Of a DNA stretch of 64,000 bases, positions 45,234 through 64,000 are shown piece after piece (positions within the stretch are counted from its first letter, which is position 1; every line of letters begins with the position of its first letter). Location: the NCBI GenBank assembly GCA_047495785.1, contig JBLDXI010000066.1, positions 711,701-775,700 of the forward strand. The letters are read 5' to 3'. Source of the DNA: Lepidodermella squamata (lineage: Eukaryota > Animalia > Gastrotricha). The notes below the pieces were generated by a model. It was not told where the DNA came from. It did no database searches and saw only the letters and a list, made by a program, of their open reading frames with translations. Made by a program: the position numbers and the translations under genes.

Positions 45234-45255
45234 AGTAGTAAGGATGGGAACTTTG

Positions 45256-45435
45256 GATCAGTAATGGCAGTACGGCGATTTTTACTATAGCCGTTTGGTA
45301 TAAATATACGCAATTTGGGATCAGTAATGGCAGTACGGCGATTTTTACTATAGCCATTTGGCATAAATATACGAGCGTTGTATCAGTAATAGCACTACGG
45401 TCATTTTTACTATAACCGTTTCACATAAATATATA
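45256..45435. repeat. Subterminal tandem repeat, 3 x 62-63 bp
   Basis: Units begin at 45256, 45319 and 45381: GATCAGTAATGGCAGTACGGCGATTTTTACTATAGCC..TAAATATA. Confidence 0.9.
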
Positions 45436-45599
45436 AGTGCGTTTTATCCGTTGCCCCATAAATGTACGCAATGTTTATGATAAAATATACAGCGGGCATA
45501 CTTTTTTTCTAAAACTATTATGAGTCATGCTTTTGCATTCTTTCTGGGAATTAATTTGTAATATAAAAAATGCACACATGATAATTTATTTTTAATTTT

Positions 45600-45875
45600 T
45601 CAATCTTTGTAACAGTAATTACAATTCCAATCACCACAATCTAGGCTGCATGCCTGATCTCTTGCTCGAGTTGCTATCATAAATCGTGATGCATCATTGA
45701 TCAATTGTTCAACCTCCAATTGTGTGTTCAACATTTCGTTTATAGCTGCTGTCATTGCTCGTTGCAGATGGTCAATGCTTAGCAGTGCTTGATATAAGCG
45801 TTCACGACTAAACATAACAGAATTTATTCAAGATTTTTTAAAAAAGAACCAAACTTACATGTCTTCTGCTTCCAT
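45600..45875 (-). CDS. Small Maverick protein, coiled-coil with Cys-rich tail; intron 45808-45858
   Basis: Splicing GTAAGT..TTTAG gives MEAEDIRERLYQALL..CSLDCGDWNCNYCYKD. Confidence 0.6.
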
Positions 45876-45955
45876 CAATTTTCTTAGTTTCCAAAAAGAT
45901 ACTTGATTAGATACAGTAATCTAAGAACTCAAGCTAGCTCATCTTTTTTCCTGCT

Positions 45956-46209
45956 TTGTCCATTAGCTTATATAAATACACCTTACTTTCCATTAACCTT
46001 TTTTGTAAATAAACATTACTTTCTCCTATCAATCCCCCTTAACTTTAATCTAAAATATAATAAATATTTTTTACTTTGGCCATTAGCATTTATAAATACT
46101 CCTTTCTTTCCTGATATGTCCATTAACTTGTTTTGTAAATAAACTTTACTTTCTCCTATCAATCCAACTTAACTGTAATCTAAAAAATATAAGAAACATT
46201 TTTTTACTC
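45956..46209. repeat. Two imperfect ~120-130 bp AT-rich direct repeats
   Basis: ccattagc..tataaatac..tgtaaataaac..tactttctcctatcaatcc..cttaact..aatctaaaa occurs twice. Confidence 0.8.
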
Positions 46210-46268
46210 AAGGAAAATCGAATAAAAGCAAAGATTAAGGTAGGGATAGCAAGGTCAAATAAGTTGCT

Positions 46269-47075
46269 ATGATTATTGGCTATGATGAATCTTATGAAGC
46301 GATTTTCTACCGAGAAGATTTACTTTTTCCTCCGAAATCATTAAATATATCACTAAATACCCTCTCTGGACGCATTACATTCGCTGAAGTCGCCATATTC
46401 GATTTGATTGCCAACTCGAAAGGCCAACATATTACTATCGATCATGTTTATCTCGGCTACAAAAGAGCCGTTGCTCGTCTCTTCCCATCAACCCACGATG
46501 GCACGAATTTTCAACATTTTGCCGAATATAATTTAGCTACCTGTGCTTCCATCGTTGGGCATGATTTATGGAAGAGCATCCTAAATGATACTACCACGCT
46601 CCTTGTTCGCCAGGATGATTTATGGTCGTCCATTTGTCACTCAATTATTTTTACTGAAAGTGATTACCTTTTGGATGATTGCCTCGACGATAGCCCTAAC
46701 CCTATTATTGTGTCTGGCCTGGAAGAAAGTTTCTGGTATGGCCTAACGGCACACCCTACCTACACCGAAGGCCGATATATCTACATCCAACATTTATTTT
46801 ACGATTTGTTAAAAAACTTTAATGGTGTCAGCGTAAACCTGCGGCACATATTCTACCTTTTACTTCGGGCAGGTCGTAGGGTCTCAGTAGAAATGCAGAA
46901 CGTCGTACCTCCACCCTATCAACACGCTCAGAAAATTCCATGGGCATCAGTCATCGATGTTCTTAATGGTCAGCAGGAAGGTGCGAATAGTAAATGGCCG
47001 GGCATCATGCAACGCTCCATCGCACTACAACCTGTCGCTACCGTCTTACCTTTCAACAACAGCTCTTCGACCTAA
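46269..47075 (+). CDS. Maverick hypothetical protein (268 aa); 3' structure unresolved
   Basis: Long ORF without a recognised motif; intron-like GTCAGT..CAG/AAG at 47080-47132/47135 just downstream. Confidence 0.5.
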   Translation: MIIGYDESYEAIFYREDLLFPPKSLNISLNTLSGRITFAEVAIFDLIANSKGQHITIDHVYLGYKRAVARLFPSTHDGTNFQHFAEYNLATCASIVGHDLWKSILNDTTTLLVRQDDLWSSICHSIIFTESDYLLDDCLDDSPNPIIVSGLEESFWYGLTAHPTYTEGRYIYIQHLFYDLLKNFNGVSVNLRHIFYLLLRAGRRVSVEMQNVVPPPYQHAQKIPWASVIDVLNGQQEGANSKWPGIMQRSIALQPVATVLPFNNSSST

Positions 47076-47242
47076 TTTGGTCAGTTTATTTTATTTATAT
47101 AATGCCTTTGTTATTTATTCATTCCTAATCAGAAGGTTCTGGGGCTCAGCAACTCCAACCAATCACCGCGGCCGGCTTCCGTCATTCGATCATTTTTCAT
47201 TTCAAACGCAAGAACTTTGAATATTATTCTTCTTACTGAATT

Positions 47243-48355
47243 TATGGAAGCTTTCTTCAATTCATCTCCGGCTTCTCCATTGTTTTTTTCTAACAATGAT
47301 TTCGTACCAATAAACCTGAATGAACCGAATACGAGTACGTTTACCAAGGAACCTGTTGAACAAACATCAGCCTCTAGATTAGCAAAAACTGCGGTTCGTA
47401 ATCAACCGAAACGCAATGCTAAACATAAAATTCAGAAAAAAGTCATAGGTACTGAGAAGAAATCAGTTGCTAAATCGGCGAAAACGCCATGCAAGGCGAA
47501 AAATAAACCAGCTGTTCCAATTACCAATCATGAGTCACGAAAGCAAGATTCTGTCGCCTCTTTTTTGGTCATGATTTGCCCTCAACCTATCGCAAAGTTC
47601 AAACAGAAACAGCTGAAATCAAGTATGTTACAAGCCTTCAATCAGCCGCATCACAGTCGACCACGATCATAAATTTGACTATATCCTATCCTGTTGATTT
47701 AAAGCTACAATCTAGCACTGAACCTTTTTTTCTATTGAAATCCCCACCATTAAATATGGAAGTAAATAATATACAATATGATATTGATTACTCTATTTCA
47801 AATATTATGGCTAAATCAAGGTCAAATTTTCTATTTAATTTAGATAGTCTAGCCCTAATTTTACCTTGTGCAAAATATAACCCAAAAAAAATGTCGAGTG
47901 CTTTGTTCTATAAAGTACCTGCTTTTAACGCGACGTTTTTATTATTTTCATCCGGAGCTATAATTTGTAGTGGTACCAAAACAGCCTCGAATTGTGTTAC
48001 TGCTTTTGGAGTTCTTCAAGCTACACTCAGAAAAATTGTTAATCGACGGTTGATAATCCGTGACCCAATAATTACTAATATAGTATTGTTCTACGATTTA
48101 CATAAAACTGTCAATCTTAGCCTGCTAGCTTTTCAATTTCCTAAAATATGCGTTTACCAACCAGAATTTTTTCCTGGGTTGCGTATACGTGTTTTCTCCA
48201 AAGTCAGCACTAATGAAAATGAACCAAAGTTAAATGTATCTGCCACACTGTTTCACACTGGAAAAATGATTATGAGCGGCTGTTTTTCGTTATCTCTTAT
48301 AAAAATAGCATTTGTTAAATTGGCGCCTTTTTTTCTGTATATCAAACAACAATAA
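47243..48355 (+). CDS. TBP: TATA-box binding protein-like; core ~47790-48340, probable basic N-terminal extension in another frame
   Basis: Both TBP repeats: ISNIMA..YNPKKMSS..LLFSSGAIICSGTK and ITNIVL..YQPEFFPGLRIR..TLFHTGKMIMSG. Confidence 0.85.
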
Positions 48356-48472
48356 AATGATTTAATGAATGAGGGAAGATTAATCGCGTGCCGTCTTTTT
48401 TTAAGCTAAAATCATTATTTCTACTTTCATCATTATCTATCAATTTTCAAAATTCGCAGCAGAAATAAAAAT

Positions 48473-48789
48473 ATGGCTATCGGTAAATTTCCCCGTTTTT
48501 AAAGTCTTCGTAATTTATTATGCATCAAACAACAGATATTCCGCGTGCTGTTTTACCGATCCTATTGCTGCTATCCCTGGTTACCATTTTAATCAGCTTT
48601 TTCGCTGTTATGGAAGTTCGCAATACTCAAGCCGAACTCCTTCACCTGCGGCAACTTGTCGAGTCTACTGAGCGGATGTTATATAATATAAATGATTTAT
48701 TATTCCACTTAAACGGTGATTTATTTAGCCACATGGCTAATTGTTCGGTTGTCCCTACTTGCCGTAAATTAGCTATAAAGAAGAATTAG
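48473..48789 (+). CDS. Small single-TM + coiled-coil protein; possible intron 48483-48535 (or unspliced start at 48520)
   Basis: AVLPILLLLSLVTILISFFAVM then heptad-like segment; splicing gives in-frame MAIDIPRAV. Confidence 0.5.
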
Positions 48790-48792
48790 GTC

Positions 48793-50004
48793 ATGCCACG
48801 TAATAAACACAATGCGAGACGTCTAGCTGAAGGAGATGCTAAAATAAACCACAGGTCAGACTTGAAATCGTTTGTTTTGAGCTTCTATAATGATCCGAAA
48901 CATGTTGGATCATTTCAAGGCCTGCGCAGATTATACTCAACACTTAAAGCTACATTACCCTTAGAGCTGAGAAATTCCCTTACTCATAAAAAACTAGCTG
49001 AGATTATGAGCCATGATCGAACATATTCATTATATAAACCACTAAGTGTAAGAAACCGGAAGCAATTCATGCAATATGAAGTTTATGCTAGAAGTGACCT
49101 CTTTCTAGGTGATCTTCTTGAAGTTCAAGATTCAAGCCAAGATAATGATGGAACCCGCTATTTACTTACAATCAAAGACTGTTTTACGCGTTATGCTTTC
49201 TGTATTCCCTTACTTAACAAAGAAGGAAATTACACTGCTGAGAAGATCAGTAATTTTTTGAGCAGCCTAACACCTGATTTGCGTTGCCGCTCTTTCACTA
49301 CAGATTCTGGCGGAGAATTTATCAACAAAGAAGCTAAAAAAATATTTAAAAAATTCAATGTTTATTATTACACTACAACCTCCATGTTCAAGTGTTCACC
49401 CATAGAAATTTTCAACCGTTGGCTTCGTAGAACTATTTCGAGGCATCAAATTGCAAATCATACGCTGCGTTACATCGATTACTTACCTTTTTTCTTAGCG
49501 TCTTACAATCAAATGAAAAATCGCAGCACTAGGGTTGCCCCGTTAGAATTATGGCTAGCTTCCCCAGAAGATCCTATAAATTTGGTTGCTTACAATAATG
49601 TTTTTGGAAAAAGAGATCAATTGATGCTTGAAAAGCGCAAGAATTTACTATACAAACCGACTTTTTCTGTCGGTGATTGTGTTAGAATTAGTCGTGTAAA
49701 GGATTTATTTCACAAAGAAGGAGATTTCATTTTTACTGAAGAATATTTTTTTATCGACCGCATAGATACTTGTACCATCCCCGACAAGTATTATCTCCGT
49801 GATACTCTGAATAAGCGTATTCAAGGTAGTTTTTACGATTGGCAGCTTCAGATAGCACATCCGCAAGAAACATATTTAATAGAAAAAGTTCTGAAGCATC
49901 GCACTATAAATGGCAAGAAACAGGCTCTTGTGAAATGGCAAAACTGGCCGATTGAAGCCGCTAGTTGGATTGATGCAAACGAGATCAAAACCTTGGCCTC
50001 ATGA
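48793..50004 (+). CDS. INT: Maverick retroviral-like DDE integrase with C-terminal chromodomain
   Basis: FLGDLL, YLLTIKDCFTRYAF, TTDSGGEF, PIEIFNRWLR, FSVGDCVRIS, YLIEKVLK..LVKWQNWP..SWID. Confidence 0.95.
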   Translation: MPRNKHNARRLAEGDAKINHRSDLKSFVLSFYNDPKHVGSFQGLRRLYSTLKATLPLELRNSLTHKKLAEIMSHDRTYSLYKPLSVRNRKQFMQYEVYARSDLFLGDLLEVQDSSQDNDGTRYLLTIKDCFTRYAFCIPLLNKEGNYTAEKISNFLSSLTPDLRCRSFTTDSGGEFINKEAKKIFKKFNVYYYTTTSMFKCSPIEIFNRWLRRTISRHQIANHTLRYIDYLPFFLASYNQMKNRSTRVAPLELWLASPEDPINLVAYNNVFGKRDQLMLEKRKNLLYKPTFSVGDCVRISRVKDLFHKEGDFIFTEEYFFIDRIDTCTIPDKYYLRDTLNKRIQGSFYDWQLQIAHPQETYLIEKVLKHRTINGKKQALVKWQNWPIEAASWIDANEIKTLAS

Positions 50005-50204
50005 ATAGAGTTCCTACGACTCCACTCTTAGCTTTCCTACAAAAGCCATCTGTGCGTGTAGGGGCCTACATTTTTTTCCTTCTAATAACCGTTTGGCTTA
50101 TAGAAATTTCAAACTATTTATTCAAAACTAAGCTCCCCCCTTTTGGCAACAGCGCAATCCTTACTTTAGAAAAGATAGATAAGGATAACATAACAAATGC
50201 TTAG
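50001..50204 (+). CDS. Small single-TM protein overlapping both neighbours
   Basis: ATGA overlap with the integrase stop; VGAYIFFLLITVWLI. Confidence 0.55.
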   Translation: MNRVPTTPLLAFLQKPSVRVGAYIFFLLITVWLIEISNYLFKTKLPPFGNSAILTLEKIDKDNITNA

Positions 50205-51417
50205 CATCCAGGAGGACTTCTTTATTTATTTACCCTCGAATGCCTCATATTCTCAACATCCGGCGAATACTCCGTCGGATTATCAAGTTGCTCTCCCTGT
50301 CCCAATTTGCGTACCCGATTGCCGTGCTTATGAAGTAGCCCTACTTGAGGCTACAATTCCTGTTAGGTGGAGTAGCATTGATCGTCATACAGTCTATGTG
50401 CTTGATTGTAACTGGCTGAAATCTTTTAAAAACGACATTATTGCTAATTATTTAACAAATCCTGGCTCTTTGCCACATCGGATGAAAAGTTTCAACAATC
50501 CATGGGAAACTGGCTTTATTAACAAAGTAAATTTCGGAGGTGAATATTTTGCGAATATAACCAAACTAATCGATCACTTTAATGAAAAAATATCCATCTC
50601 AAGTAGTAATGGCTCTATTTTTGCTCATTATGATTCAGTCAACAAAAAAACTAAAATTACCTGTAAATGGCCATATTCTATGTTTATACCTTCAGATTCT
50701 GCTGGCCTCTTAGGTTTTGTGTCTCCAATAGAACAGAATACACCGTCTGGAGTTTTCATTTTTCCCAAGGCCCCAAAAAATGACGAGCCAGAATTTAATG
50801 AAGTTTCCACTTTTGATATAAAGTCAACGTATGCCTTGGCATATGCGTGGAATATGAGCCACCAAATTCGTGAAAATCCACACATTTTATTCAACTCAGT
50901 TGGGATTGTTAGGCTTTCTAGCAGACCAAAACTTAAGGAGGATGCAAATAATGAGACAGCGGCGGTAGAAAATCAAGAAGGCGTAAATTCAGCACAGCAC
51001 TTTGATTTTTCTGAGCAAACAGTAATCACCAAAGATAATGATTTACCGCCTGCCTTTATTTATGCATGCTATGAAGAAAGTGCTACAGCTCAATACAACA
51101 TTCAGTTGAATTATGGCAATAACTCACTGTTCATTTACTGCTCAGTTGCAGCGGATGTTTTTGTTGGAGATTGCCAAGCTAGCCTCCTTCGAATGATAAC
51201 CTATTCTACGATGGCTTCTGCTACGGCAAATTCAGACTTGTCATCACATTTTACAGTGATTTATAACTCGGGCCTATATTTACCTTTAAAAGCCAATTTT
51301 ATAGATTCAATTCAAGTTCAAATCCGCCGCGATAACGGGGCATTGATCGATTTTGTGGATGGTAGCAAAGTTGTATTGCTACTTCATATTCGCCGAAAAA
51401 CCGGAGCCTTATATTAA
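50197..51417 (+). CDS. Minor capsid protein (penton, PX-type)
   Basis: FFIYLPSNAS..NTPSDYQVALP..YEVALLE and LFIYCS..VGD..LLR..YLPL..IQVQIRRDNG..LLLHIRR. Confidence 0.85.
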   Translation: MLSIQEDFFIYLPSNASYSQHPANTPSDYQVALPVPICVPDCRAYEVALLEATIPVRWSSIDRHTVYVLDCNWLKSFKNDIIANYLTNPGSLPHRMKSFNNPWETGFINKVNFGGEYFANITKLIDHFNEKISISSSNGSIFAHYDSVNKKTKITCKWPYSMFIPSDSAGLLGFVSPIEQNTPSGVFIFPKAPKNDEPEFNEVSTFDIKSTYALAYAWNMSHQIRENPHILFNSVGIVRLSSRPKLKEDANNETAAVENQEGVNSAQHFDFSEQTVITKDNDLPPAFIYACYEESATAQYNIQLNYGNNSLFIYCSVAADVFVGDCQASLLRMITYSTMASATANSDLSSHFTVIYNSGLYLPLKANFIDSIQVQIRRDNGALIDFVDGSKVVLLLHIRRKTGALY

Positions 51418-51455
51418 TATAAGTGGCTGAGTTCTAATTATTAATATTACCGAAG

Positions 51456-51998
51456 ATGCCCCTAGCTTATTCTAACCAAAACGTTGACAAGTACCAGCAG
51501 TTTTTTCTCCGCCAACACTCCTCCCCGCTGATAGCAGGCTATGGAGCTGGAGCGGGTGCTAACCTGGACCATTTCCGTGGGGCAACAATTCAATTTCCAT
51601 ATCATTATAGGGGTCAGGGAATAGGAAATATATTAGGTGCCTTTTTCAGAAATTTCTTCCCAGTAATTGCTCCGTCTATTTTTCAACAAGCATTATCTAC
51701 TGGCCAAAAAATATTAGGTGATATGCAACAACCTGAGGGCGCTAGACCTAGTTTTACCGAATCCCTTAAGCGTCATGGCACTTCAGGCGCCTTAAACATG
51801 GCTAAGGATATTGCTGAAACGGCTTTGAAGCAACATCAAGGCGGTGGAGGTGGCCGTAAAAGGCGCCGTCGTCGTGGCCCTAGTAAAACTAGTAGTGTGA
51901 CTGCAAAACGTAGGCGCCGTGCTTCTACTACAAAAAGAAAGGCTTATAAAAGGAAAAGACGCGCAACAACTAAATCAGTGCTATTTGAAGCGTCTTGA
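51456..51998 (+). CDS. Conserved Maverick small basic (core-like) protein
   Basis: RGQGIGNILGAFFRNFFPVI amphipathic motif; GGGGGRKRRRRR Arg/Lys-rich tail. Confidence 0.7.
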   Translation: MPLAYSNQNVDKYQQFFLRQHSSPLIAGYGAGAGANLDHFRGATIQFPYHYRGQGIGNILGAFFRNFFPVIAPSIFQQALSTGQKILGDMQQPEGARPSFTESLKRHGTSGALNMAKDIAETALKQHQGGGGGRKRRRRRGPSKTSSVTAKRRRRASTTKRKAYKRKRRATTKSVLFEAS

Positions 51999-52031
51999 GC
52001 CCATTGCTGCGTTTGATTCTTCAAATTTGTA

Positions 52032-53522
52032 ATGGAAGGCTTTGGAGATAATTTTGTTCACCCAGCCTCAGCCTCTTCAATAGTATTATCTTCAGATTTA
52101 GATTTATTTACTGTACCGCCTTCACAGCTTGCTGAAGAAAACCAAATAAGTATAGATGTTTACCCAATTGCCCCTCTTAATAGTTCACCGAACCTGATTG
52201 AGTTTCAAATCGGCCCGTACAATGATTATTTGTGTCTGTCACGCATGCAACTGATGCTCAAGTGGAAAGTAGTTAGAACCCCTTCTGAAGCTCGGAAGAA
52301 AAATGCTGGCGAAGCTGACGATGCATACAACGAGTATAAGGCTAGTCTTTCGGCTACAAATTTACAAAAAGCCCCGCTTTGTTTAGCCCACCACACAATG
52401 TTCAAAACATGCGAGATTTCACTAAATGGGCAACTTTTAAGTGAACAAAATTCATTATACGCTTATCGGGCCTATATTTCAACGCTTTTGTCTCATAATA
52501 CTGATGCAAAAAACACGATATTACAGACACAATTTTGGTATCCTGATACAGCTAAAAAACTGGATAATTTTGACAATTCAAACGAGGGATTTAAAAAACG
52601 GTTGGAAATTGTTCAGGGCGGGAAATCTGTGTGCACCCTGGGACGCCTGTTTGCAGATCCTATGCTGTGTAATAGGCTACTTCTACCTAATGTTGAAGTC
52701 CGCATCAAGCTCTATAGGGCATCTAACAATTTTGCTTTGGTTGGGCCGAGCACAGCTGATCCTCACTCAATCGTCATTGAATCTGCAAAAATTATTGCCC
52801 GGGCTGTTGTTGTGTCGCCGGACATAGTGATTGCTCATACGCGTGCGCTGGAAAAAACTAACGCCAAATATCCTATAATGAGAGTTCGAACAAGGCTTTT
52901 TCACATACCAAGTAGTGTTTTGAGTTACAGTGTAAGTTTGCTCATCGCGCGTTTCTAAGTCAATTTTTAAAACTCTAATGGTTTAACAGATACCACAATG
53001 TATTAATGGTAAGCTTCCAAGGCGTATGTTTTTCTGTTTTTTTGAAGATTCCGCCCTGAATGGAACGGCGGGTAAAAATCCATTGAATGCATTACACAGC
53101 CAGCTATCCCGAATATCGATTTATTTGGGCAATGAACTACATCACTCAACAGCTCCCTTGGAAATGGATTTTGCAAATGGAGATGTCACCAGAGTCTATT
53201 TGGAGCTTCTCAATGCTATCAACCCAGATAACCCTTTCAAGGCATCTACGTTAACTATGGATCAGTTTATTAATGGCTTCACAATTTTTGGTTTCGATTT
53301 ATCGCGCAACTCCTCGTTGCAAAATTACTCAGTTATACGCACAGGTACCTGCAGAGTAGAGTTGAGTTTTGCTGTTCAAACAACAATTGTTACTCAGCTG
53401 TTAGTATTAACTGAAACTGATTCAGTTTTTGAGGTATCATCTTTTTTCATAAAATTAAAATTGCCTTAAAATTCAAATTTTTTAAGATCACACGAACGCG
53501 TGACGTAATTGTTGATTCTTAA
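52032..53522 (+). CDS. Major capsid protein (double jelly-roll, PY-type), 459 aa; introns 52932-52989 and 53434-53486
   Basis: SDLDLFTVPPSQ, YAYRAYISTLL; spliced SYS|IPQCINGKLPRRMFF and SVFE|ITRTRDVIVDS*. Confidence 0.9.
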
Positions 53523-53532
53523 GCAGTTTTTC

Positions 53533-54096
53533 ATGTACAACAATGAATTGGAAGATTTCATCCGGATTGATCCAGTACTAAAAAAGTTTGACATTTTTGT
53601 TGTAGCCGCTGATCAGCTACCACAGCAGCTTCCTATTGTGAAAAATAATCCACAATTGATTATCTGTAACACAGGAAATGTATACAATTCTACAGGAAAG
53701 CACTGGGTCACACTGTTTGTTCACAGCGCACAGCATCCTGATGAGCCCTGTGAGTTTTTCGATAGCCTTAACCTTTCCCCTTCCTATCATAACCTCTATA
53801 TCGACAACTTTTTGAAAGCGAATAGCCAAACAGAAGTGCCGTACATTCATTGCAATAGGTCTTACCAGCATGTTTTTTCACAAATCTGCGGCTTATGGGC
53901 TCTATATTACAGCATGCTTCGAGCGCGAGGTAAAGACATGCACCAAATTTTGAGGCATTTTGATCAGCTTGGATCAAAGAACAATTTGCTTATAAAAGAC
54001 TGTGTACTTTATCATAAATTTAATACATTATATTCCCACTATGGTCTATCTATGAGACCACTTGAAAGAATAAAACCCTGTAACGTTAGATTATAA
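53533..54096 (+). CDS. Adenain-like cysteine maturation protease
   Basis: IICNT, GKHWV, EFFDS, YQ..SQICGLWALYY (His/Asp/Gln/Cys). Confidence 0.9.
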   Translation: MYNNELEDFIRIDPVLKKFDIFVVAADQLPQQLPIVKNNPQLIICNTGNVYNSTGKHWVTLFVHSAQHPDEPCEFFDSLNLSPSYHNLYIDNFLKANSQTEVPYIHCNRSYQHVFSQICGLWALYYSMLRARGKDMHQILRHFDQLGSKNNLLIKDCVLYHKFNTLYSHYGLSMRPLERIKPCNVRL

Positions 54097-54099
54097 AGG

Positions 54100-54943
54100 A
54101 TGAGTGATTTGCGCTGCTGCCCTGGCAACATAAATGAAGCTTTGCCTTTTGTTCACCCTAGCACAATTCTCATTGTTGGGCCGTAAGTGACGATGGAAAT
54201 AAAAGTCAATATATTTTAGTGTAATTTACTCATCTTCAGGTCGGGGAGCGGTAAAACAAGTCTGGTGCTTCAAATCCTACAGGATGCATTCAGTTTTGAA
54301 CTTCCTTTTGAGAGAATTGTCTATTTTTATTCTACTTTCCAACCCATTTACAATGACATAGCCGATGCTGCATTGCAAGTTCACAAAATTAAAGTTGAAT
54401 TCGTAAATTTAGCAGACACAAAAAACAGCAGTAGCGATAGCTTCAGCTTAAAAAATTATATCAACGACAATAACGAGACGCAGCCCCGCTGTTGCCTAGT
54501 ATTTGATGACGTGTATCGCCTATTAACTGAAGACGAAACACTGGTACAGCTTTTTTTAGGAGGGCGGCACTTGAATACGACAACCATTCTCCTTCAACAA
54601 GTTTTGTTTACTCGAGCAAAAAATAGCAGGGAAATTCTGGTTTGCCTCAGAAAATTATTGTTTTTTCTTCTATGTATTTTCTATTCTATAGCAAAATGCA
54701 AACTATTTATTCTATTTTCGCTGCATTTCCGACTCTGCAAGCTTTAGATCATATGCACAACGGCGTTCCCCAATGGGCTGGCGAGGCCTTCTTGAAGCGT
54801 TGAACCAAGCAACTGCTGAATCATCTCACACGCCACTGCTACTGGATAATTGTGCAACTACTCCGGATAATCTCCGCATTCGTTCGAGCAATGGCTTCGG
54901 TAGTAAACCTGGTTACGCTTACATTTTAGTCTCAAAGAAATGA
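54100..54943 (+). CDS. FtsK/A32-like packaging ATPase; introns 54183-54239 and 54640-54691
   Basis: Spliced Walker A IVGP|SGSGKT, Walker B LVFDD, GRHLNTT..LQQ, REIL|QNANYLFYF, TPDNLRIR. Confidence 0.9.
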
Positions 54944-54994
54944 TGATATGTACTATTATAAAAGGATTCATTGCCGCCCAATTTTCGTCGTTAA

Positions 54995-55408
54995 ATGAAT
55001 AAAGTTATTACCTCAGCAACGTCACCATCGTTCAGTCTTGATAAAAAACGGCGGCTTTTTCTTGCATTGAAATGGTTATTGCATGCTCACCCCGGTCAGC
55101 GTGCTGATATTTTAGCAACTAGCTCTGTTAGCCTTATACGATTTCTTAGCCGTTGCGCCTTGTATTGGCTTCGCAGCACTAGTACTGTTCTGGCCCCTGA
55201 TTTGGCTAAATTGAAACAAAAAGGTGTCAATTTGGTCGAGCACAACCGGCAAGTTTTTATTCGACACTGCCTTAATAGCAACAAGAACAATAGGCGAAAT
55301 AAGGCTTCGAAAGCTTCCTTTTTTGCAGTTTTACCCACTGTATTGAAATCCTTTGCACCCAGGCTAAAGTTTGATTATTCAGAACTCAAGAGGCTTCTTC
55401 GAATCTAA
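54995..55408 (+). CDS. Basic Maverick protein (137 aa)
   Basis: LKWLLHAHPGQRADILATSSVSLIRFLSRCA resembles the small ORF that follows the ATPase in animal Mavericks; TATAAAA at ~54957. Confidence 0.55.
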   Translation: MNKVITSATSPSFSLDKKRRLFLALKWLLHAHPGQRADILATSSVSLIRFLSRCALYWLRSTSTVLAPDLAKLKQKGVNLVEHNRQVFIRHCLNSNKNNRRNKASKASFFAVLPTVLKSFAPRLKFDYSELKRLLRI

Positions 55409-55411
55409 ACT

Positions 55412-56563
55412 ATGCAGCGAAACTATGCACAGCGCATGACTATTGTTCCACTTGCGACACCTGGGCCAACTCCAGCACAACAACAACAACAACAACCAAA
55501 CGCGAGCGACTTGATTGCTGCTAAAACATTGCTGAGCAATCCTCTGCTTTTCAAACTAGTGCAGCTATTACAGTCTTTAGACCGGGATGTGATAAACAAC
55601 GCTAGTAGTAGTGATAATTCAGCCGATTTAGTGCGAAAACGTAACGAACTCATGCATGAGATTATGAATTTGAAGAAGCTGGTAGTTTTACAAGGCAGTA
55701 GCCAGCCGCCAGCCGCTATTCCAATGTCGCCTGCACCAGCAGATCGAGCAGAATCGAGGCCGCGCTCTCCTCCTCCTCCTCCTCCTCCTCCTCCTCCTCC
55801 TCCTCCGCTGCCGCCGCCGCCGCTTCCTTCTGCTTCTTCTCCTCCTCCTCCTCCTCCTCCAAAAAAACAGCAGCAACAACAACTTGCGCGCCAACAACCT
55901 ACTAAATTAACATCTAGTAATTTTGGTCAAGCGGCCGGGCCTAGCTATAACAACTATAACAGAGATTCGGGTATTGGCGGCTTTCAGCAGCAGTTTTCAC
56001 CTAATACAACGCCACGACCTTCAACTGATAATAGCAGCAATTATGAATTTGATGATCTTCAAATGGATTTTCTATTCGCTGCCCCGCAAACATCATCGAC
56101 TTCTAGCGCTGCAGCCACGACCGTCCTCAGCCACGATGATGTTGTTGTTGATCGGCCTAATGATGAGCAGCTGCCTACGAGAGGAGGGACCCCCCGCGCG
56201 CGCACCCCCCAGGCCCCTCGAGACAGCAACACAACAGCAGGGTCGTCTTCGTTTAGCGGCGATGAGGACAGCAGCGGCAGCAATAGTGAAGAGCTGCAAG
56301 ATGGTGCTGATAATGATGATAATCAAGCAGAAAGACAAGAAGAAGCCGCTGCCGCTGAACCGATGGAAATTGAGCTAGCTGGAGCAGCAACTGCAGCGGC
56401 AACGCCACGGAAGGGTCAAAAGCGCGGTAGAAAGCCACGTTCTATGACTGATCAAACACAAATATCACCACCTGGAAAACTTTTCCGAAGAACGTCACAG
56501 CGTAAGATAAATAAAATCAACAAGTTTCAAGCTGGCACAGGGTTTTGGAGTTTATTCATGTAA
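55412..56563 (+). CDS. Pro/Gln-rich, largely disordered Maverick protein (383 aa)
   Basis: MQRNYAQRMTIVP start, (CCT)n poly-Pro at ~55768-55860, acidic region, NLS-like RKGQKRGRKPR. Confidence 0.6.
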   Translation: MQRNYAQRMTIVPLATPGPTPAQQQQQQPNASDLIAAKTLLSNPLLFKLVQLLQSLDRDVINNASSSDNSADLVRKRNELMHEIMNLKKLVVLQGSSQPPAAIPMSPAPADRAESRPRSPPPPPPPPPPPPPLPPPPLPSASSPPPPPPPKKQQQQQLARQQPTKLTSSNFGQAAGPSYNNYNRDSGIGGFQQQFSPNTTPRPSTDNSSNYEFDDLQMDFLFAAPQTSSTSSAAATTVLSHDDVVVDRPNDEQLPTRGGTPRARTPQAPRDSNTTAGSSSFSGDEDSSGSNSEELQDGADNDDNQAERQEEAAAAEPMEIELAGAATAAATPRKGQKRGRKPRSMTDQTQISPPGKLFRRTSQRKINKINKFQAGTGFWSLFM

Positions 56564-56570
56564 TAATCGA

Positions 56571-59500
56571 TCATTGATCAGCGCTATATCCATGTGGATA
56601 AGTTAGAAAGGAAGCATCGCCGGGGCGTAGCCAACGTTTATCATAGGTTAAACGAATCTTTTTTGTTATATGAACACAATGAATTTCCGATAACGGAGTA
56701 TGCACTTTTTTAAACTGAGTCTGATCCAATTCAGCGATGACGCTGTTTTTGTTGTTATCACCCCGGCCCCCGCTTCCGCTGGTTTCGTTATCGTGGAGAC
56801 TTTGTATTACATGCTTGATGAACAAGAAAAAATCGAGAAGACTGCGTGAATGAAAACTTTGACGTATTCCCTGCGCGTGACGTAAATAATAAAAAACAGA
56901 GGGCGTAACAACAAGTAGCAATTACCTTTAACATTAGCTTGGCTTTGCCGTCAGCAAAAAGTAGGGCATATGCCTTACAGCCCAGTACAACCATTGCAAT
57001 GATGCGTTGCCCTGTATCAAGCTGATCCGCCAAGCCGCCAAGAACGGGTGTGAACTCAATTTTAGTAATTCCAGGCCCTTGAAGGCAAAAAATTGAATCC
57101 GTGTCTAAAACAAAAGACAAAAAACGTAGAGATGTTGGTAGCATAAGCGGCGCTATTCTCTAACCGCTGTAGATAGCACTTTTTGGGCCGACTCGGTACA
57201 GCTCACGAGCCAGTTTCACACGAGCATTAGCTGTTACGAAGGCCGCTGTTATAACTGAGGTGGATCCATTTGGAACGTCGGCATCTTTGGTTGGCCGTGT
57301 TACAATTCGCAAGCGAGAGACATCATCAGAGTTGATGAGTAAGCCTAGTGGTTGAATATCCACAATTTCCAAAGCTGGATTATTTAGCATTTGCTGAAGC
57401 AGAAACGGGGATTTGATATAATCTGTTCTCTCTAGATTAGAATTCATAGCAAATCGACCAAAAAAGCTGTTCAAAACTAATTTGGCGATCGCGCGTAACC
57501 CAGGGTTCTTTTTATCCAACTTGGTGCTATCAATCGTTATACCAATGCGTTCCCATTGCTCCAAATACTGTGCTTTTTGTTCACTAGTAGCACAGTTTGG
57601 CGGCCAGCCGGAGGATTCGGCCTTCAAAATGGTGAATCTTTTAATGAAATCTCTGAAAATTGTATTGCTCTTCTTGAACTCCCATATCTAAAAAAAATAA
57701 CTTGATAGAAGCCATGCATGAGTTGGCTAAACAAAATTATTAACCTCGTAGACTTCCAGCAATCTGTAGCCATGAACATCTGTAGCGTACTTCAGTTCCA
57801 CAGAGCAATACGAACCAATCCAGGACCTTTCATAATCAGAATGGGTGCATTCACGGCTTGAAACGCACAAGTTTGGATTTGCAGTCGACGAACAAGCATA
57901 GCAACATGAGAACACGAGCTTGTTTTGTTTACTACGAAAGCAGAGTACAGGTAGCCAGATGTTTTTCGGCGCTAATACCTAGCAAAATAATGTGGTGATG
58001 ATGAAAGCAGGGAGACGATATGTAGATGCGAAGAGCTTACGCGTGCTTGTACGACACCAAAAAAAGATTCCTTTGAATAAATCTCCTGCAGTTTCTCGTT
58101 GTTTAATCTGAGATCCAAGGTGGATACTTTAGGTGGTCCTATTGCATAGTAGCCATCCATCATACAGCTTGGATATAACGAGTTGAAGTCGGCGGAAATT
58201 ATAGAATAATCGGGCGATGGAAATAAGAAGTCCTTGGTTTGCATCCCGCTTTCCTTACAAATTTGAGCAATCTTTTCCAAATTTTGGTCGCCTGAAGTTG
58301 AGTGTGATTCGGCAATCATAGCCATTAAACGAAAAGCTTCGACCCGCCCTAAAAAGTAGGCATGATGTTTTAATCCCGCGAAGATTAAATAGGGAAAACC
58401 TCCAGTTACCTCCAAAGAAAAACGAACGGCTCTCCATTACATTAGCTATTGTGAGATTATCATAAATCTCCTGTGCTCTCGGGTGTTGTTTGAAACTAGC
58501 TCTAATTTCATGCTCCCAAAAGCTTTGAAGAATGTAACCATTCGAGCGAAACAACTCTTCACGTTCCAAGGTTTGCTTGTAAACTACGCCGTTTGGTTGT
58601 CCAGATAGAAAATTTAGTTGTGAGGCCTCAAAGCATTGCAAGCAGCCATGGACAGCACAACCATGAACCTCGACAATCAGATCGGGTTCACTCGGAATTT
58701 TATCACGACGTGCAACAAAACCGTCGACGCGATAAGGATAACGGTGGCCAGGTATAGATATTCGAACTTCTTGACGTGAGTTCTGAGCGTGTTTCATTGA
58801 ACCATAAGTTTCAGGGTCAGACTCCATCAGAAATTGAAGAAAAGCTATCGAGAGCCTGCTGTGTGAATCCTTGCCACAGTAGCCAGCGGTCGGGATGACA
58901 GGTAATGTATCCTTCGTAAGAAACAGCTTGCGGAAGCATGTGCTTGTGAGAGAAGCTAGTGTGATGCATTCTTTAAAGGCATCAGTAGAACACAACTCCA
59001 GCATTAGCGCCCGAAATTTGATTGACGCCTTTTCCAAAACTAGACAATCCTGTATGCAGTATTGCAGTAACGTGTGGCGAACACTGAACCGTTTCAGTTT
59101 GTTTTCGTTGTAGAAAGTTAGAAATTCTGCTCTTTCAGAAGGAGACATTTTGTCAGGCTCATAGTAGATCATATTAGGCAGCTGTGGGAATTCGAGATTG
59201 AAACTCGAAGGATTACAGCGAATTCAATCACAATAGCTCAAGAAGTTGATGATGTACTTACTTTTCTTTAGTGCATAAGACGTAAGGAAAGAAGGTTTTC
59301 TTGTCTGGGATTCCCATTGTTGCTGGTAAATCCCTGTTGTTGAACAAATACCTGTAAGCAATGTAGTTTCTTAGTGTTTCTTAGGTAACCTACCTTAATC
59401 TGCATTGAAAAAAGAGATATGAATCCAAAAATCTGATTTTTTGTTGTTTGAAATCAATGCATAGTAGAGATCCCTGCCTTTGAAGAATCTTCACTTTAGA

Positions 59501-61427
59501 ACATCGTGTTTGAATTTCTTTCAGTAATAATAAGGAATCGAAATTGGCTGAGTTGTGAGCCAAATAAATCGACTGGTAATTCATAGGTAGAAGCACCCAG
59601 TTTACGAAATCCTCCAGAGGACGACTTCCATAAAAAATATGAAGTCCACAACTAGAATGGCATCGCTGAATCCTCGCTTCGATGCAGTGAGGTATGCATA
59701 CGACCTTTGCAACGATAAGGCATACTTGGAACTCATTGTTGTTATCAGCAAGTGATGGCGAAAATGTCTCAGTGTCCCAAAAAACTAGGTTACGATAACG
59801 TTCCAGTTTATTCGCCGGTTTCAAGGGCTAAAAATACACCAACCACAGTATTTTGAAAAAAGCTGGACTGAAAAAAATGAGTATACCAAGGGAGTCATGA
59901 AGCAGAAGTGTGTGCCATTTTCTTCGTCGCTGGCTTTCAAAGGCTCCTGACAAATGTGACAGCGCCGCCCGGGACACATAGCCTCATGCTTGAGAAAATG
60001 TACAAATTTCCTCCCGCATTTAAAGCATGGATTCTTTTTAGCACATTTGTGGTTTTGCTTACAACGTTCGCTATACAAAACTAAAAACATAAAAAGAGCT
60101 GAATAATAATGAAAAGGTTAAAAACATCAGACCTGCACGACATTGCGGACACCGCGTGTAGTTTTGTTGGTCTGTGTTGGAAATCACACGGCAAATGCTC
60201 CCTGATACACCTAAAATAATATTAATGATAAAAGAAGTGAAATTCAGGTTTTTCATGTAAAAATTACGGCAGGAAGAGCATGCCAACTTGCATCTGTGCA
60301 CAGCCGTACTCGTTTTCGTCTGAAAGCAAGTGGGGCATATTCGTTGTGCATTGCTAAGAGTGGCCTTCATAAAGTTGAGATTCGCAATGACATGAAAATG
60401 ATGACTGTTGGGCTGAGAGACGTCGTTGCGATAAACCAGTAGAACAACAGGAAGCAACCCAAGGCTTACGCGATGATCAAATTCTGGGATTTCCCTAATA
60501 ACATCCTGTGATTCGTACGAGTATACTACGAATCTGTAAGTATTATGTTCAGGATCGATAGCCGAACACAGGGCTGAGTAATGATCATCTAGATTGTAGG
60601 CTGGAAGGTTGAGAGGTAAGCCCGCTTTCTGATATAGCGCCGTGGCTTCGCGAAATTGACGATTGGTTCGCGTACTACGTATCGATTTGAAGGTTGCTTG
60701 AAGAGATGGATCCGTAGGATTCGCCTTCATGTGAGCCAAAGCCACTCCAGTGATGAGAGCTCTGCCCATGCAAAGATTGTTCGTTTCATTCTTGCGCGCT
60801 CCGATTCTAACGATCGATTTGGAGCGAAGAAAAAATTTGTCCAAAGTTTCGTTTATAGCCCGCTCTGCCCGAGAACCACCAACAATTTGACCTAGATCTG
60901 CATTGGGGTTATCAATGACACAGAGACGAATTGTCCACCGACCAGCAAATGAGAGTTCTTCATTACTCTGTAATATTTTTCTCAGTTGATCAAAAATTGA
61001 AATTTCCAGCAACCGATCGCGTTTCATGAAGGGTAGGCTAAGAGGCATCTTCAAGTCGGGGTGGTACAGTGTTAGCCGGCAGAAGGAATTCACAGGTAAA
61101 TCACGATGGATATTTACAACAATATCGAACAGGAAGTTGGCCAGAATATTGAAGCGGGTCTCCAAATCAAATATTAGCCACCTGGTCGGCTGGTACGTTC
61201 TGCACAAATGATCGAATATTATCCAGTCGAGGTTCATCAGCGCCACCAGACAATTGAATCATCGGCCCAAGCGAACTAGAAGATTGGCCATATCTGTTGA
61301 TGTAGGTTGAGGCAAAGTCGGATGTTACGGGCTGAATGAAGTACTCCACAGAAAACATTTTGAATTTTGTAGAATGAATCAGGCGATTACTTCGAATAAA
61401 TGAGTATTGTAAACTATAGTTATCCAT
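56571..61427 (-). CDS. pPolB: Protein-primed family B DNA polymerase with 10 introns and one 1-nt frameshift near 61169
   Basis: Introns 60211-60267, 60081-60132, 59828-59886, 59334-59393, 59204-59261, 58349-58409, 57979-58040, 57688-57744, 57105-57164, 56871-56925 restore WDTET, AHNSANFD, FLDSY, YCIQDC, FFG|GRVE, DFNSLYPS, KLVLNSFFGRF, YS|DTDS, KAYA, K|GI, YDKR. Confidence 0.92.
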
Positions 61428-61544
61428 AACAATCTAAGATTAAAAATTTAAAATTGATCGAATTTGGGAAGAGGTAAAACTTTATTACAAGGATAGATTG
61501 AAATAAATATTCAGTAAGTCATTTTAGTCAAGTTTTGTGTTAGC

Positions 61545-62066
61545 TTATTCATTGGCTGTTTCAATCATCGCTGCAACAGTTAACACCCCAGTTGCAAGGT
61601 CTTGAAACTGAGCTGCATCAAGAGAGACTCCTTGTCTTGAGGGTTGTTTATTTCCTAAAAAGTTAAATCATAAAAAGATTGCTATTACTGTAAATTTGAA
61701 GTAAATACCTTTAGCATCCAGATAAAACCTGCGTATATCTATAAGAATCGGTGAAAATGATGGCACAAAGACACAGACTTCAATTTTGCATTCATGCATC
61801 GAAAATTTAAAGCCTGTGTTGTGAGATAGCAGGGCAAGTTGAGCCTGAGCAACCCAAGCATCATTCGGCGGTCGAAAATAAGGAACGAACTGGCTAAGAA
61901 ATTCGTCTTGTCTAAAGGCGAGTTTTTTAGGCTTATCGTTCTTATCTTTGCGATCAGTCATTATGTAGATGAGATTAGAATCCTGAGGATGCTGTTGAAT
62001 GACCAAGTTACTAGACATGTGATGATTGACTGTCTGGTTAGCAGATTCTACTATCGCCTCAGCCAT
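61545..62066 (-). CDS. PC4/Sub1-domain protein; intron 61655-61708
   Basis: Spliced ILIDIRRFYLDAK|GNKQPSRQGVSLDAAQFQDL matches the PC4 pattern IDIRxYY..PxKKGISL..Q(W/F). Confidence 0.8.
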
Positions 62067-62108
62067 GATTATTGAAAATTAAATCTAATGAAATAAGAAT
62101 GTAAAACT

Positions 62109-62471
62109 TTAAGGGATGGGTTCTTTATATTGGCATAACTTTTCATGCCCAAAAATGAGGTCATAAGTTAGAGTAATGGGACAGCCTTTATCAGAATATT
62201 GGCATTTGTAAATCAAATTCGAGATAATGTTCGATAAAATTACAGGGGGTTTAACGAAATCTTTCCCTGTTAATGATTCGCGGCAAAGTGGACAGCAACA
62301 TACTGTTCGAGCTGAATTTTGAAAAATAGCGAGAACACATTTAGTACAAAATAAATGGCCACAGGGGCGCGTTTGAATAGGATTAAGTAGGATAGATAAA
62401 CAAATTGGACATTGCAAAGATTCAGCGTCTAAAATCTGGCTGTTCGAGAGCACAAGTCTTGTTGGATCCAT
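62109..62471 (-). CDS. C3HC4 RING + TRAF/SIAH-type Zn finger, putative E3 ligase
   Basis: CPIC..PCGHLFCTKC..CPLCR, then CQYSDKGC..HEKLC. Confidence 0.85.
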   Translation of the reverse strand: MDPTRLVLSNSQILDAESLQCPICLSILLNPIQTRPCGHLFCTKCVLAIFQNSARTVCCCPLCRESLTGKDFVKPPVILSNIISNLIYKCQYSDKGCPITLTYDLIFGHEKLCQYKEPIP

Positions 62472-62555
62472 CAATGAGGATTCAAGTCTGAGAGATTACA
62501 GGCGTGATAAGAGAGGCAACATACTGAGAAGCTTGCTTTAGAACCTCAGAGGCAT

Positions 62556-63245
62556 TCAATTATCAGTGTCGATAACAAGCACGGGACATGGTAGGGATTT
62601 GTTTGTAGTCTCAACAGTACACATTTTTTCATGAAACTCATGTACGAGGCGTAAATAATCCAGTGATAATAGCATTTCAGAACCCCGAGCTCTAGCTACG
62701 GCTCTTTGACAAGCTATTTGGGGAGAGGAGCGCAAGTAAATAATAGCTTCAGTTTTTACAAAATTCGGCTCGAAATTATCATACAAATTCATGAGAGCGT
62801 GATATTCGATAGAATTTATGCGCTTGGATGCATACGCACATGGGATAAAGACGTTTTTAGAACAGAAGGGCGTTCGATCATGCAGAACGATAGTATGCGC
62901 CCCGTAGATTTCAGGTTTGTGGTTAGGGGCTGAATAAAGGCCGCACATATCACTCGTGGCTACAATTTGAAAGTTGAACGCATTTTTCATCTGATAGTAA
63001 TCTTTCAAAATGTTAGTTTTATCGTCATCAGTAAAGGACTCCCAACGATGAACAGGCTCGCAAATTGGCCACGCGGTATATCCCTGAAGTTTACGGTTGA
63101 GTGAAGGTAGATTAGTGAGACCCTCGATTAAGGTTGATTTCCCGCTAAAACAAGAGACTTTAAATAGAATTCTATTCGGTGGAGTATATGAGACTTACGC
63201 CCCAATGTTGCCGACTATGCCGAAATGGTAGACTTTAGGATGCAT
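62556..63245 (-). CDS. Deoxynucleoside kinase; intron 63145-63198
   Basis: Spliced P-loop GNIGA|GKST, EPVHRW, FQ, DRT, IYLRSSP..RAVARARGSE, YLRLVHEFHE. Confidence 0.9.
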
Positions 63246-63679
63246 CCAGCTTGCTTCAAGAAATATGCTAAGTGTATTCTTGAAGCATCTCTCTTAAATA
63301 GTCTGAGTGATATTTCCATAAAAGGAAAAAACAGGGAGATGTTTTGTTTGAATTGTTTAAGGTAATTACACCGTAAAGGGTAAAAAATCCTAATTGCTTT
63401 TTATTTTGATAAGTAAAAAATCGCATTGTTTAATTAGGGAGGATGTATAAGATTTATTGACATGATGTTTTCTTATTGAATTACCGACAGCAATTAAGGA
63501 GGATGTATACAATACCAAGAATCTTTGATGAAAAGCATTAAAGCCAGCACTGAGGGGTCAACAGAGCTAAAGGCCCTAATGCATTTTTAAGGAAGATTGA
63601 ATTACAAAAACAATATGCCTGAAAGGAGGTAGCCGCTCACATAAAAATCGAACCTCAGTAACAATATAAATTATAAAAT

Positions 63680-64000
63680 ATGAAGCTGAAGGTAGAGCTA
63701 ACAAGTAACAAAGCTAAAGAACCGACAAAGCATACTAAAGGCTCTGTGGGTTGGGACATCTATTCAGCAGAAGAGACGACACTGCAACCTGGAACCAGGG
63801 GACTGATTCAAACTGATATTAAAATCTGTTTACCACGAGGATATTATGGACAACTATTCAGTCGATCAGGAATGAGCATCAACCATGGAATCGATACGGT
63901 CGCTGGAGTAATAGGTAAGAAGCAAATAATAATGAAAATTACTAATGAATATCTGTATTTTTCATGAATTAAAGACGCCGACTACTCTCACGAGATGTGT
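63680..64000 (+). CDS. dut: Trimeric dUTPase; intron 63915-63974; truncated by the window end
   Basis: GWDIYS, SRSGMS, spliced motif III AGVI|DADY. Confidence 0.9.

Follow-up and report, generated by a model that had tools for sequence, protein, structure and literature searches.

Host-type introns in a gastrotrich Maverick/Polinton element lean towards conserved columns of its polymerase

The window analysed here (the whole stretch of 64,000 nucleotides) contains a Maverick/Polinton element of about 19 kb, whose features are collected in Table 1. The Maverick/Polinton traits found in it are a protein-primed DNA polymerase (pPolB), an rve integrase, an A32-like ATPase, a double jelly-roll capsid protein and a cysteine protease, while intronless ORFs, a described trait of Mavericks that does not serve to classify them, are violated by 20 introns. 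The element has 40% GC and the host ORF that flanks it 58%; run X1 reaches a depth of 1533-2857 over bins 45802-64000 and of 232 in the bin of the flank, values that are not a copy number. At the left terminus loose ends lie at 45234 in X1 and at 45355 in X2. The opposite-strand joint 45355/63985 in X1, together with a depth that is about doubled in bin 45151-45801, suggests a second copy of the terminal repeat, the right end being outside the window.

Table 1. Features of the element and the evidence for each (X1 to X3, public sequencing runs; percentiles are those of column conservation; a slash in a motif marks the intron).
Feature	Coordinates	Strand	Evidence or remark
Maverick/Polinton-type element	45234..63985	.	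Right end beyond window; gene set, GC, X1 depth
Left terminus AGTAGT, probable terminal inverted repeat	45234..45355	+	
Intron, 51 nt, small unnamed gene	45808..45858	-	X3: spliced contig (depth 5), unspliced contig (depth 8)
Intron, 53 nt, shortly 3' of the stop codon of unnamed ORF 46269-47075	47080..47132	+	X2 and X3 joins
TBP-like ORF, intron-free	47534..48355	+	PF00352 E=3e-24; X2 contig unbroken over 47319-48481
Intron, 53 nt, small ORF starting 48473	48483..48535	+	X2 and X3 joins
rve integrase with chromodomain, one open frame	48793..50004	+	PF00665 E=2e-5 (below cut-off), PF00385 (above cut-off)
Conserved Maverick ORF, one open frame	50197..51417	+	13 homologous ORFs in Maverick loci
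Predicted major capsid protein gene	52032..53522	+	Introns 52932-52989 (predicted), 53434-53486 (X2 join)
Cysteine protease, one open frame	53533..54096	+	PF02902 E=0.03 (weak); 9 homologous ORFs
A32-like packaging ATPase gene, two introns	54100..54943	+	PF04665 30.6 bits, cut-off 22.8
ATPase intron 1, 57 nt, phase 2, Walker A	54183..54239	+	Predicted; percentile 0.78-0.90
ATPase intron 2, 52 nt, phase 0	54640..54691	+	X2 join; percentile 0.76-0.78
pPolB gene, 10 introns	56571..61358	-	PF03175 on four exon ORFs
pPolB intron 1, 57 nt, phase 1	60211..60267	-	Sole in-frame stop-free coding intron
pPolB intron 2, 52 nt, phase 1	60081..60132	-	
pPolB intron 3, 59 nt, phase 0	59828..59886	-	Poorly conserved columns
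pPolB intron 4, 60 nt, phase 2	59334..59393	-	
pPolB intron 5, 58 nt, phase 2	59204..59261	-	
pPolB intron 6, 61 nt, phase 1, in FFG/GR	58349..58409	-	X2 join; percentile 0.99-1.0
pPolB intron 7, 62 nt, phase 0	57979..58040	-	Percentile 0.90-0.97
pPolB intron 8, 57 nt, phase 0	57688..57744	-	X2 and X3 joins
pPolB intron 9, 60 nt, phase 1, within first Asp codon of motif C	57105..57164	-	X2 and X3 joins; percentile 0.96-1.0
pPolB intron 10, 55 nt, phase 0	56871..56925	-	X2 and X3 joins
Intron, 54 nt, phase 1, inside weak PC4-like domain	61655..61708	-	X2 and X3 joins
RING finger ORF, one open frame	62109..62495	-	
dNK gene, one intron	62556-63245	-	PF01712
dNK intron, 54 nt, phase 2, in P-loop	63145..63198	-	X2 and X3 joins
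dUTPase gene	from 63680	+	Cut off near window end
dUTPase intron, 60 nt, phase 1, motif III	63915..63974	+	X2 loose end

Homologs of the integrase (19 ORFs) were found in related Maverick loci, beside pPolB. The conserved ORF that follows it gave no match in the Pfam search and is presumably, from its position, a minor capsid gene; runs X2 and X3 have no cover over these two genes and are uninformative on the expression of either. The major capsid protein, assigned from its sequence as probably double jelly-roll, has neighbours in the Atlas, at 0.96-0.97, that are double jelly-roll proteins (11-39% of members carry PF21738), 18 homologous ORFs in Maverick loci and 27-29% identity over ~410-440 aa to the best related loci. 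An ORF starting at 62066 on the minus strand contains a weak PC4-like domain (PF02229 E=0.005, below cut-off), for the exon of which the Atlas returned nothing. The dNK had no phage match and was found in none of five viral records, and a dUTPase in one of five; the first dUTPase exon ends at GVI, aligned with residue 84 of PDB chain 2okd_A. Relatives of pPolB numbered 1972 at E<=0.001, word-index homolog searches gave one match for pPolB, one for the capsid and none for the ATPase, and viral-contig scans with single exons as query gave no locus in one case and one weak locus in another.

All 20 introns of the element are GT-AG introns of 51-62 nt with U2-type traits (GT..AG ends, GTAAGT-like donor, pyrimidine-rich acceptor and exact removal), and in size they resemble the predicted introns of the host, 11 of 13 of which measure 47-65 nt. 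Eighteen of them are skipped in public runs X2/X3, the remaining two, ATPase intron 1 and capsid intron 1, being predicted only; no join for the former stands among the 15 of 21 join rows displayed, and its prediction comes from sequence alone. We take X2 and X3 to be RNA, a guess that is not on record, from the exact GT-AG joins and the poly-A loose ends (in X2 at 47329 and 55355). Run X1 has none of the 14 listed intron joins, and run X4 contains almost nothing of the element. One X2 contig departs from the window sequence at 63914, where the dUTPase intron starts, and carries on with the bases from 63975 onward, and an X2 contig of 4731 nt is without any of the 10 pPolB introns; the window copy of pPolB has a frame break near 61169, beyond which, in the 3' direction, the exons share a single phase-consistent open frame. 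Retention would bring a stop or a frameshift for 17 of 18 coding introns, wherever they are placed, and the named enzymes do need splicing, as the earlier note had maintained. An origin as introners was rejected (best intron-pair score 21 vs shuffled maximum 24 +/- 2.6), and no 15-mer is common to the element introns and the rest of the window. An identity as group I/II introns or inteins was likewise rejected on the length of the introns and the frame-breaking nature of the coding ones.

The earlier note had drawn attention to five of these introns, in the ATPase Walker A, the pPolB FFG/GR segment and motif C, the dNK P-loop and dUTPase motif III, as lying inside catalytic motifs. Each is present as a GT..AG intron (54-61 nt, 62-80% A+T) with the named motif halves alongside, and four of the five (the two in pPolB and those of dNK and dUTPase) are skipped in the two public runs. 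The earlier note was right that the introns are real. The catalytic label does not extend to all of them, FFG/GR being, as we take it, a conserved pre-motif-A segment involved in DNA binding rather than in catalysis. The five are, moreover, a selected subset of the 20, and pPolB has 10 introns rather than two, strict motifs containing two of the ten.

A permutation of intron position against conservation, which the earlier note had proposed as a check, showed that placement in the full pPolB set is non-random: conservation at the 10 introns was 0.508 compared with 0.368 by chance (p=0.0006), and a second homolog set (65 rows) gave p=0.0008. The bias was also obtained with null models matched on phase and flanking bases (-2, -1, +1; p<=0.0005), and likewise when the local content of GC or of G was matched (p<=0.0005). 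For the eight unflagged pPolB introns, p varied with the null between 0.01 and 0.15 (0.13-0.15 in low-gap columns only, 0.02-0.09 without gap penalty). Taking together the 14 testable introns of pPolB, ATPase and capsid, the mean percentile was 0.73-0.75 (p=0.0005-0.001), and the 11 unflagged ones among them gave p=0.015-0.022; ATPase and capsid introns alone yielded p=0.07-0.13, both capsid introns being unremarkable (percentiles 0.45-0.73). Introns also avoid indel-rich columns (gap fraction 0.058 vs 0.164, p=0.025; p=0.04 and 0.06 with wider windows), as an explanation based on intron survival predicts. We conclude that the pPolB introns, small as their number is, lean to conserved columns beyond chance.

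Among 92 related loci, 72 were without any intron call. Fourteen of the 25 calls were dropped as in-frame and open, hence probable protein insertions, and two of the 11 frame-breaking calls (L051 and L090) as not AT-rich, so that nine were kept. Frame-breaking, AT-rich GT-AG introns occur at motif B in six of the 77 metagenome loci spanning it, at three different nucleotide positions, and the same two motif-B codons are split in four separate lineages. On the tree these introns need 4 changes and a single clade is rejected (p-AU 0.0002), this being a quick tree from which 6 long-branch rows, including the window sequence, were omitted. With motif B counted once, the bias among the relatives' introns had p=0.057, in a locus search that was anchored on protein ending at motif B and disfavours loci with upstream introns. 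In 50 of 150 database relatives the frame ends at most 5 residues from the end of homology, and column conservation at these ends was 0.517 vs 0.42-0.43 under a null that includes alignment-trimming bias (0/10000 draws); seven of the 50 lie within three residues of motif B.

Whether such a pattern could result from chance and selective noticing, with random positions and a signal due to two or three striking cases, has to be weighed against the fact that the earlier note flagged only five of the 20 introns, that the gene was chosen because of these introns and that the low-gap tests of the unflagged ones were not significant. We give this reading little probability, since the full set reaches p ~0.001 with two homolog sets, the 11 unflagged introns reach p ~0.02 and the frames of database relatives end in conserved columns as well. 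Somewhat less improbable, though still unlikely, is a neutral bias of gain, by which introns arise at proto-splice sequences supplied by the Gly, Trp and Asp codons of the motifs. The base at exon position -1 is G in 13 of the 19 introns tallied, TGGGG is the motif-B sequence in all 62 loci read (G/GT in 12), and three of the six motif-B introns are flanked as G/GT or G/GC. However, the phase- and flank-matched nulls keep p<=0.0005 and the local-G-matched one p=0.0005, and beyond the flagged pair G/G stands at only 2 of 10 pPolB junctions; the proto-splice codons that had been offered as a neutral alternative are therefore insufficient by themselves. The context-matched test against biased gain loses force in so far as the flanking bases may have drifted after insertion.

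Another proposal had been that replication and packaging are under a latency or tissue switch consisting in regulated intron retention. Every named enzyme requires splicing, X3 has an unspliced as well as a spliced contig for 45808-45858 in an unnamed gene, and latency-phase genes of the punuivirus are enriched in introns, there as a mark of host-like expression (10.64898/2026.10.09.758095, accessible part, in which the word 'retention' is absent). But a switch gains nothing from a position in a motif because the coding introns, with one exception, break the frame wherever placed; X2 contains no retained pPolB intron, its depth in 7 of 7 bins being that expected from the spliced contig only (assembled contigs); seven introns are spliced in runs of two studies alike; and the unspliced contig may be pre-mRNA or DNA. 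We find the switch unsupported and improbable. Equally doubtful in our opinion is a spread of introns by recombination or gene conversion between divergent Mavericks, a homing-like process without endonuclease that needs the most conserved DNA. It would agree with the recurrence at motif B in lineages whose identity is 45-61%, and group I introns and inteins give the same pattern via homing (PMC2814812, accessible part), yet conversion would copy a position exactly, whereas the motif-B introns differ in theirs and none of the 10 pPolB positions in the window is among the 6 distinct positions in the relatives' DNA.

The explanation we prefer, to which we would give about an even chance, is that the lean of the 20 host-type introns towards conserved columns is an effect of survival rather than of a switch. 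On this view the element would have acquired its introns singly while residing for long in an animal with minimal introns, and the host spliceosome would remove them routinely. An intron in a variable loop could disappear through a genomic deletion that is imprecise but tolerated by the protein, whereas inside a motif only exact loss would be possible, and motif introns would persist for this reason. G-rich codons that the protein keeps fixed, as W-G in motif B, would provide further sites of recurrent gain and, more speculatively, the number of introns, unlike their place, may be favoured as making transcripts look host-like. The logic of precise removal is that given for inteins and group I introns in the accessible part of PMC2814812, where the conserved-site bias is described as absent for cellular spliceosomal introns; survival would consequently have to act more strongly in this element. 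Instances in which an intron was lost through imprecise deletion were not seen. Survival alone leaves the fourfold use of one motif unexplained.

Judged by the accessible part of PMC8097293, the element resembles animal Maverick/Polintons in its pPolB, rve integrase, A32-like ATPase, protease and double jelly-roll capsid, in its AGTAGT-type terminus and in its two gene modules. It differs from them in its 20 spliceosomal introns and its TBP-like, PC4-like, RING, dNK and dUTPase genes, intact vertebrate Mavericks having intronless ORFs according to the same text (Barreat and Katzourakis 2021). Dinoflagellate introner-containing polinton-like elements, as portrayed in the accessible part of PMC12166617, also present spliceosomal-type introns inside full-length Maverick-like elements, but their inserts are repeated transposon copies, whereas the 20 introns here are mutually unrelated and the host is an animal. 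The punuivirus, an endogenous giant virus, is similarly an integrated DNA virus with a working genome and spliced host-like GT-AG introns (in 61 of 506 genes, with latency-phase enrichment), and the accessible part of 10.64898/2026.10.09.758095 mentions no motif bias; unlike in the punuivirus, core replication, packaging and capsid genes are split here. Inteins and group I introns share the preference for conserved positions, precise removal being part of the explanation (Swithers et al. 2009, PMC2814812, accessible part), while the introns of this element, GT-AG and so short, leave no room for a ribozyme or endonuclease.

A literature search, with subscription papers and preprint supplements outside its range, found no report of introns in animal Mavericks. 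In PMC10120064 a prokaryotic gene caller was used on the stated ground that endogenous viruses are without introns, and an element with 20 introns would score as a decayed fossil or be missed by surveys that assume intron-free elements. Because most relatives are intron-free, the introns are most simply gains. Intron gains are rarely caught in animals, and the element shows a bias reported absent for spliceosomal introns (PMC2814812, accessible part), so that the place of intron gain and the cause of intron persistence become directly testable. We tentatively propose, with somewhat less than even confidence, that animal Mavericks gain spliceosomal introns repeatedly and independently at the same catalytic motifs, like inteins as well as group I introns but unlike cellular introns, and that intron-rich lineages which are still multiplying, such as the present one, use their introns to be taken for host genes and escape virus surveys based on ORFs. 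If this is true, intron-rich Mavericks would be a natural experiment starting from an intron-free ancestor, in which gain, site choice and persistence of introns could be measured.

All five introns that the earlier note had placed inside viral enzyme motifs, namely motif C and FFG/GR of the protein-primed DNA polymerase (pPolB), the ATPase Walker A, the dNK P-loop and motif III of the dUTPase, were found where it had put them, bounded by GT..AG, 54-61 nt long and with the named motif halves on both sides. The region is covered by three public sequencing runs (X1, X2 and X3), none recorded as RNA, X2 and X3 coming from two studies other than that of X1. X1 behaves as DNA, lacking every one of the 14 listed intron joins (contigs skipping an intron exactly), and X2 and X3 skip introns exactly. 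The claim that these introns are real thus stood for the four backed by X2 or X3, and the Walker A intron is counted as predicted because no join is listed for it. The element carries 20 introns, all 51-62 nt long; joins among those listed support 18 (17 in X2, eight in X3, seven in both), and two are predicted. All ten polymerase introns are absent from one 4731-nt X2 contig, and the polymerase exons past the frame break of the window lie in an open, single phase-consistent frame. Sequence comparison found no relatedness among the element's introns. Their lengths agree with those of host introns predicted without RNA, 11 of 13 of which measure 47-65 nt.

The earlier note also read the motif positions as a possible retention switch, and this reading was not supported. 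Retention breaks the frame in 17 of the 18 coding introns irrespective of location, so a switch could do without motif positions. Introns are removed routinely in the available runs, and in 7/7 polymerase bins X2 has the depth expected from spliced forms alone, although contigs drop rare forms. One sign of retention, at 45808-45858, lies outside the enzymes. The observation is confirmed and its interpretation partly supported.

Two of the ten polymerase introns fall under a strict motif rule, motif introns being the only ones that the first reading could see. A permutation test of position against column conservation, using all ten and 48 long homologues chosen from 150, bore out the proposed association (junctions 0.508 vs 0.368; p = 0.0006). 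With nulls matched on phase and flanking bases, and with nulls matched on local GC or G content, p was ≤ 0.0005; low-gap columns alone gave p of about 0.01, and a second set of 65 homologues aligned to the same profile p = 0.0008. For the eight polymerase introns not flagged earlier p was 0.01-0.03 (0.02-0.09 without gap penalty, 0.13-0.15 in low-gap columns), and for the ATPase and capsid introns by themselves 0.07-0.13. Polymerase, ATPase and capsid together (14 introns) gave p = 0.0005-0.001, the 11 unflagged among them p = 0.015-0.022; nine of the 14 rank in the top quartile of conservation and three in the top 5%. Introns also avoid indel-rich columns (p = 0.025-0.06). The bias to conserved columns is real but moderate.

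Of 150 database polymerases, 50 stop, in the region tested, no more than five residues from where homology ends. Their end points fall in conserved columns, seven of them at most three residues from motif B, and none of 10000 draws from a null including alignment trimming reached as high a value; the tails, judged from protein sequence, often look like read-through into a GT donor. Six proteins (P0036, P0118, P0047, P0059, P0084 and P0038) have donor-like tails and terminate at motif C, motif A or the FxGGR segment itself, the motif C and FxGGR ends being one or two codons off the intron sites of the window. At the DNA level, a spliced aligner recovered 10/10 window introns, a favourable test because the profile was anchored on the window, and called none in 72 of 92 related loci. 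Keeping frame-breaking, AT-rich calls and dropping in-frame open ones left nine clear introns. Six of them interrupt the W-G codons of motif B, where they occupy three different nucleotide positions. On a quick tree these six require four changes, and their grouping in a single clade is rejected (p-AU 0.0002). The query ended at motif B, so the scan disfavours introns upstream of it; the equally unpenalised downstream stretch held none in 15961 locus-codons, vs six loci in 154 locus-codons at motif B. With motif B taken once, the bias in relatives has p = 0.057. No intron position was common to window and relatives. The motif B sequence TGGGG stands in 62/62 loci read at that motif. Further frame-breaking introns occur in two related loci (L026, 1230-1303; L080, 289-350); one falls within the exonuclease domain's conserved HN-x-x-G segment and the other within a variable stretch.

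By gene content the element is a Maverick/Polinton with a probable terminal repeat, the signs of which are indirect, encoding TBP, integrase with chromodomain, capsid proteins, protease, A32-like ATPase, pPolB, a weak PC4-like protein, RING, dNK and dUTPase; the TBP-like and PC4-like genes amount to two general transcription factors carried by a Maverick of roughly 19 kb. X1 depth (1533-2857 in the element vs 232 in the flank bin, depth not being copy number) and a second flank at the element's start suggest that it is present in several nearly identical copies or as a form that replicates. The host side has lectin, fibrinogen and arrestin genes, which point to an animal. The 383-aa ORF could encode a virion core protein. 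The opposite-strand joints may be fold-back artefacts or double-stranded RNA, and the two indels may be read errors or lesions of the window copy. The last bases of the window presumably resemble a long-read barcode adapter, and the window probably terminates at a read or contig end.

Features of the window and the observations made on each
Position	Feature	Observation
10277-38026	Tandem arrays	At least two unnamed host gene families; open frames 310-420 aa; copies share 65-93% identity over 300 nt; most lack a Pfam match
39512-39712	Inverted repeat	MITE-like; arms 38 nt, 97% complementary, spacing 125 nt
44942-45233	Insertion site	Host ORF, GC-rich (58%), containing several stops; several divergent variants of this flank in X1
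45234	Element start	AGTAGT; second flank joined in one X1 contig
45808-45858	Intron	Spliced and unspliced contigs in X3
47329, 55355	Poly-A loose ends	X2
47534-48355	TBP-like gene	Pfam E=3e-24; spanned by a single X2 contig
51500-55300	Capsid/ATPase module	At least 10 low-depth opposite-strand joints in X2, about 90-130 nt apart
54183-54239	ATPase Walker A intron	Join absent from the 15 rows listed out of 21
55412-56563	383-aa ORF	Poly-Pro and poly-Gln tracts, basic C-terminus; no Pfam match
56571-61358 (-)	pPolB gene	
57105-57164	pPolB motif C intron	Joins in X2 and X3
58349-58409	pPolB FFG/GR intron	Join in X2
61169, 62557	Single-base indel differences	Against X1 and X2 (62557 also X3); disrupt polymerase 5' part, change dNK 3' end
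63145-63198	dNK P-loop intron	Joins in X2 and X3
63915-63974	dUTPase motif III intron	X2 contig exits window at 63914, resumes with bases from 63975
63986-64000	Final 15 bases	Disagree with X2 dUTPase continuation

The most likely account is that the introns were gained piecemeal and persist at sites where exact loss alone is tolerated. In its accessible text PMC2814812 makes the exact-loss argument for inteins as well as group I introns, and finds no such conserved-site preference for spliceosomal ones. Invariant G-rich codons, such as TGGGG of motif B, may supply an extra hot spot of gain. By analogy, a high intron number may be favoured if introns protect foreign transcripts against silencing, as shown for HUSH in human cells (PMC8770142, accessible part).

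Judging from the accessible portions of the sources, intact vertebrate Mavericks are intronless (PMC8097293), whereas this element has its 20 introns; a large survey presumed introns absent (PMC10120064), and those of PMC10748475, PMC8502044 and PMC11296320 do not mention spliceosomal introns in these elements. The nearest reports, equally as far as their accessible text goes, include introner insertions in dinoflagellate elements (PMC12166617), group I introns of protist PLVs (PMC12220804) and spliceosomal introns of punuivirus (10.64898/2026.10.09.758095). The literature searched contained no report of an animal Maverick with introns, although closed papers may hold one. What the window contributes is a nearly complete element in which 18 introns have joins, together with a positional bias that is quantified and DNA-level recurrence at motif B.
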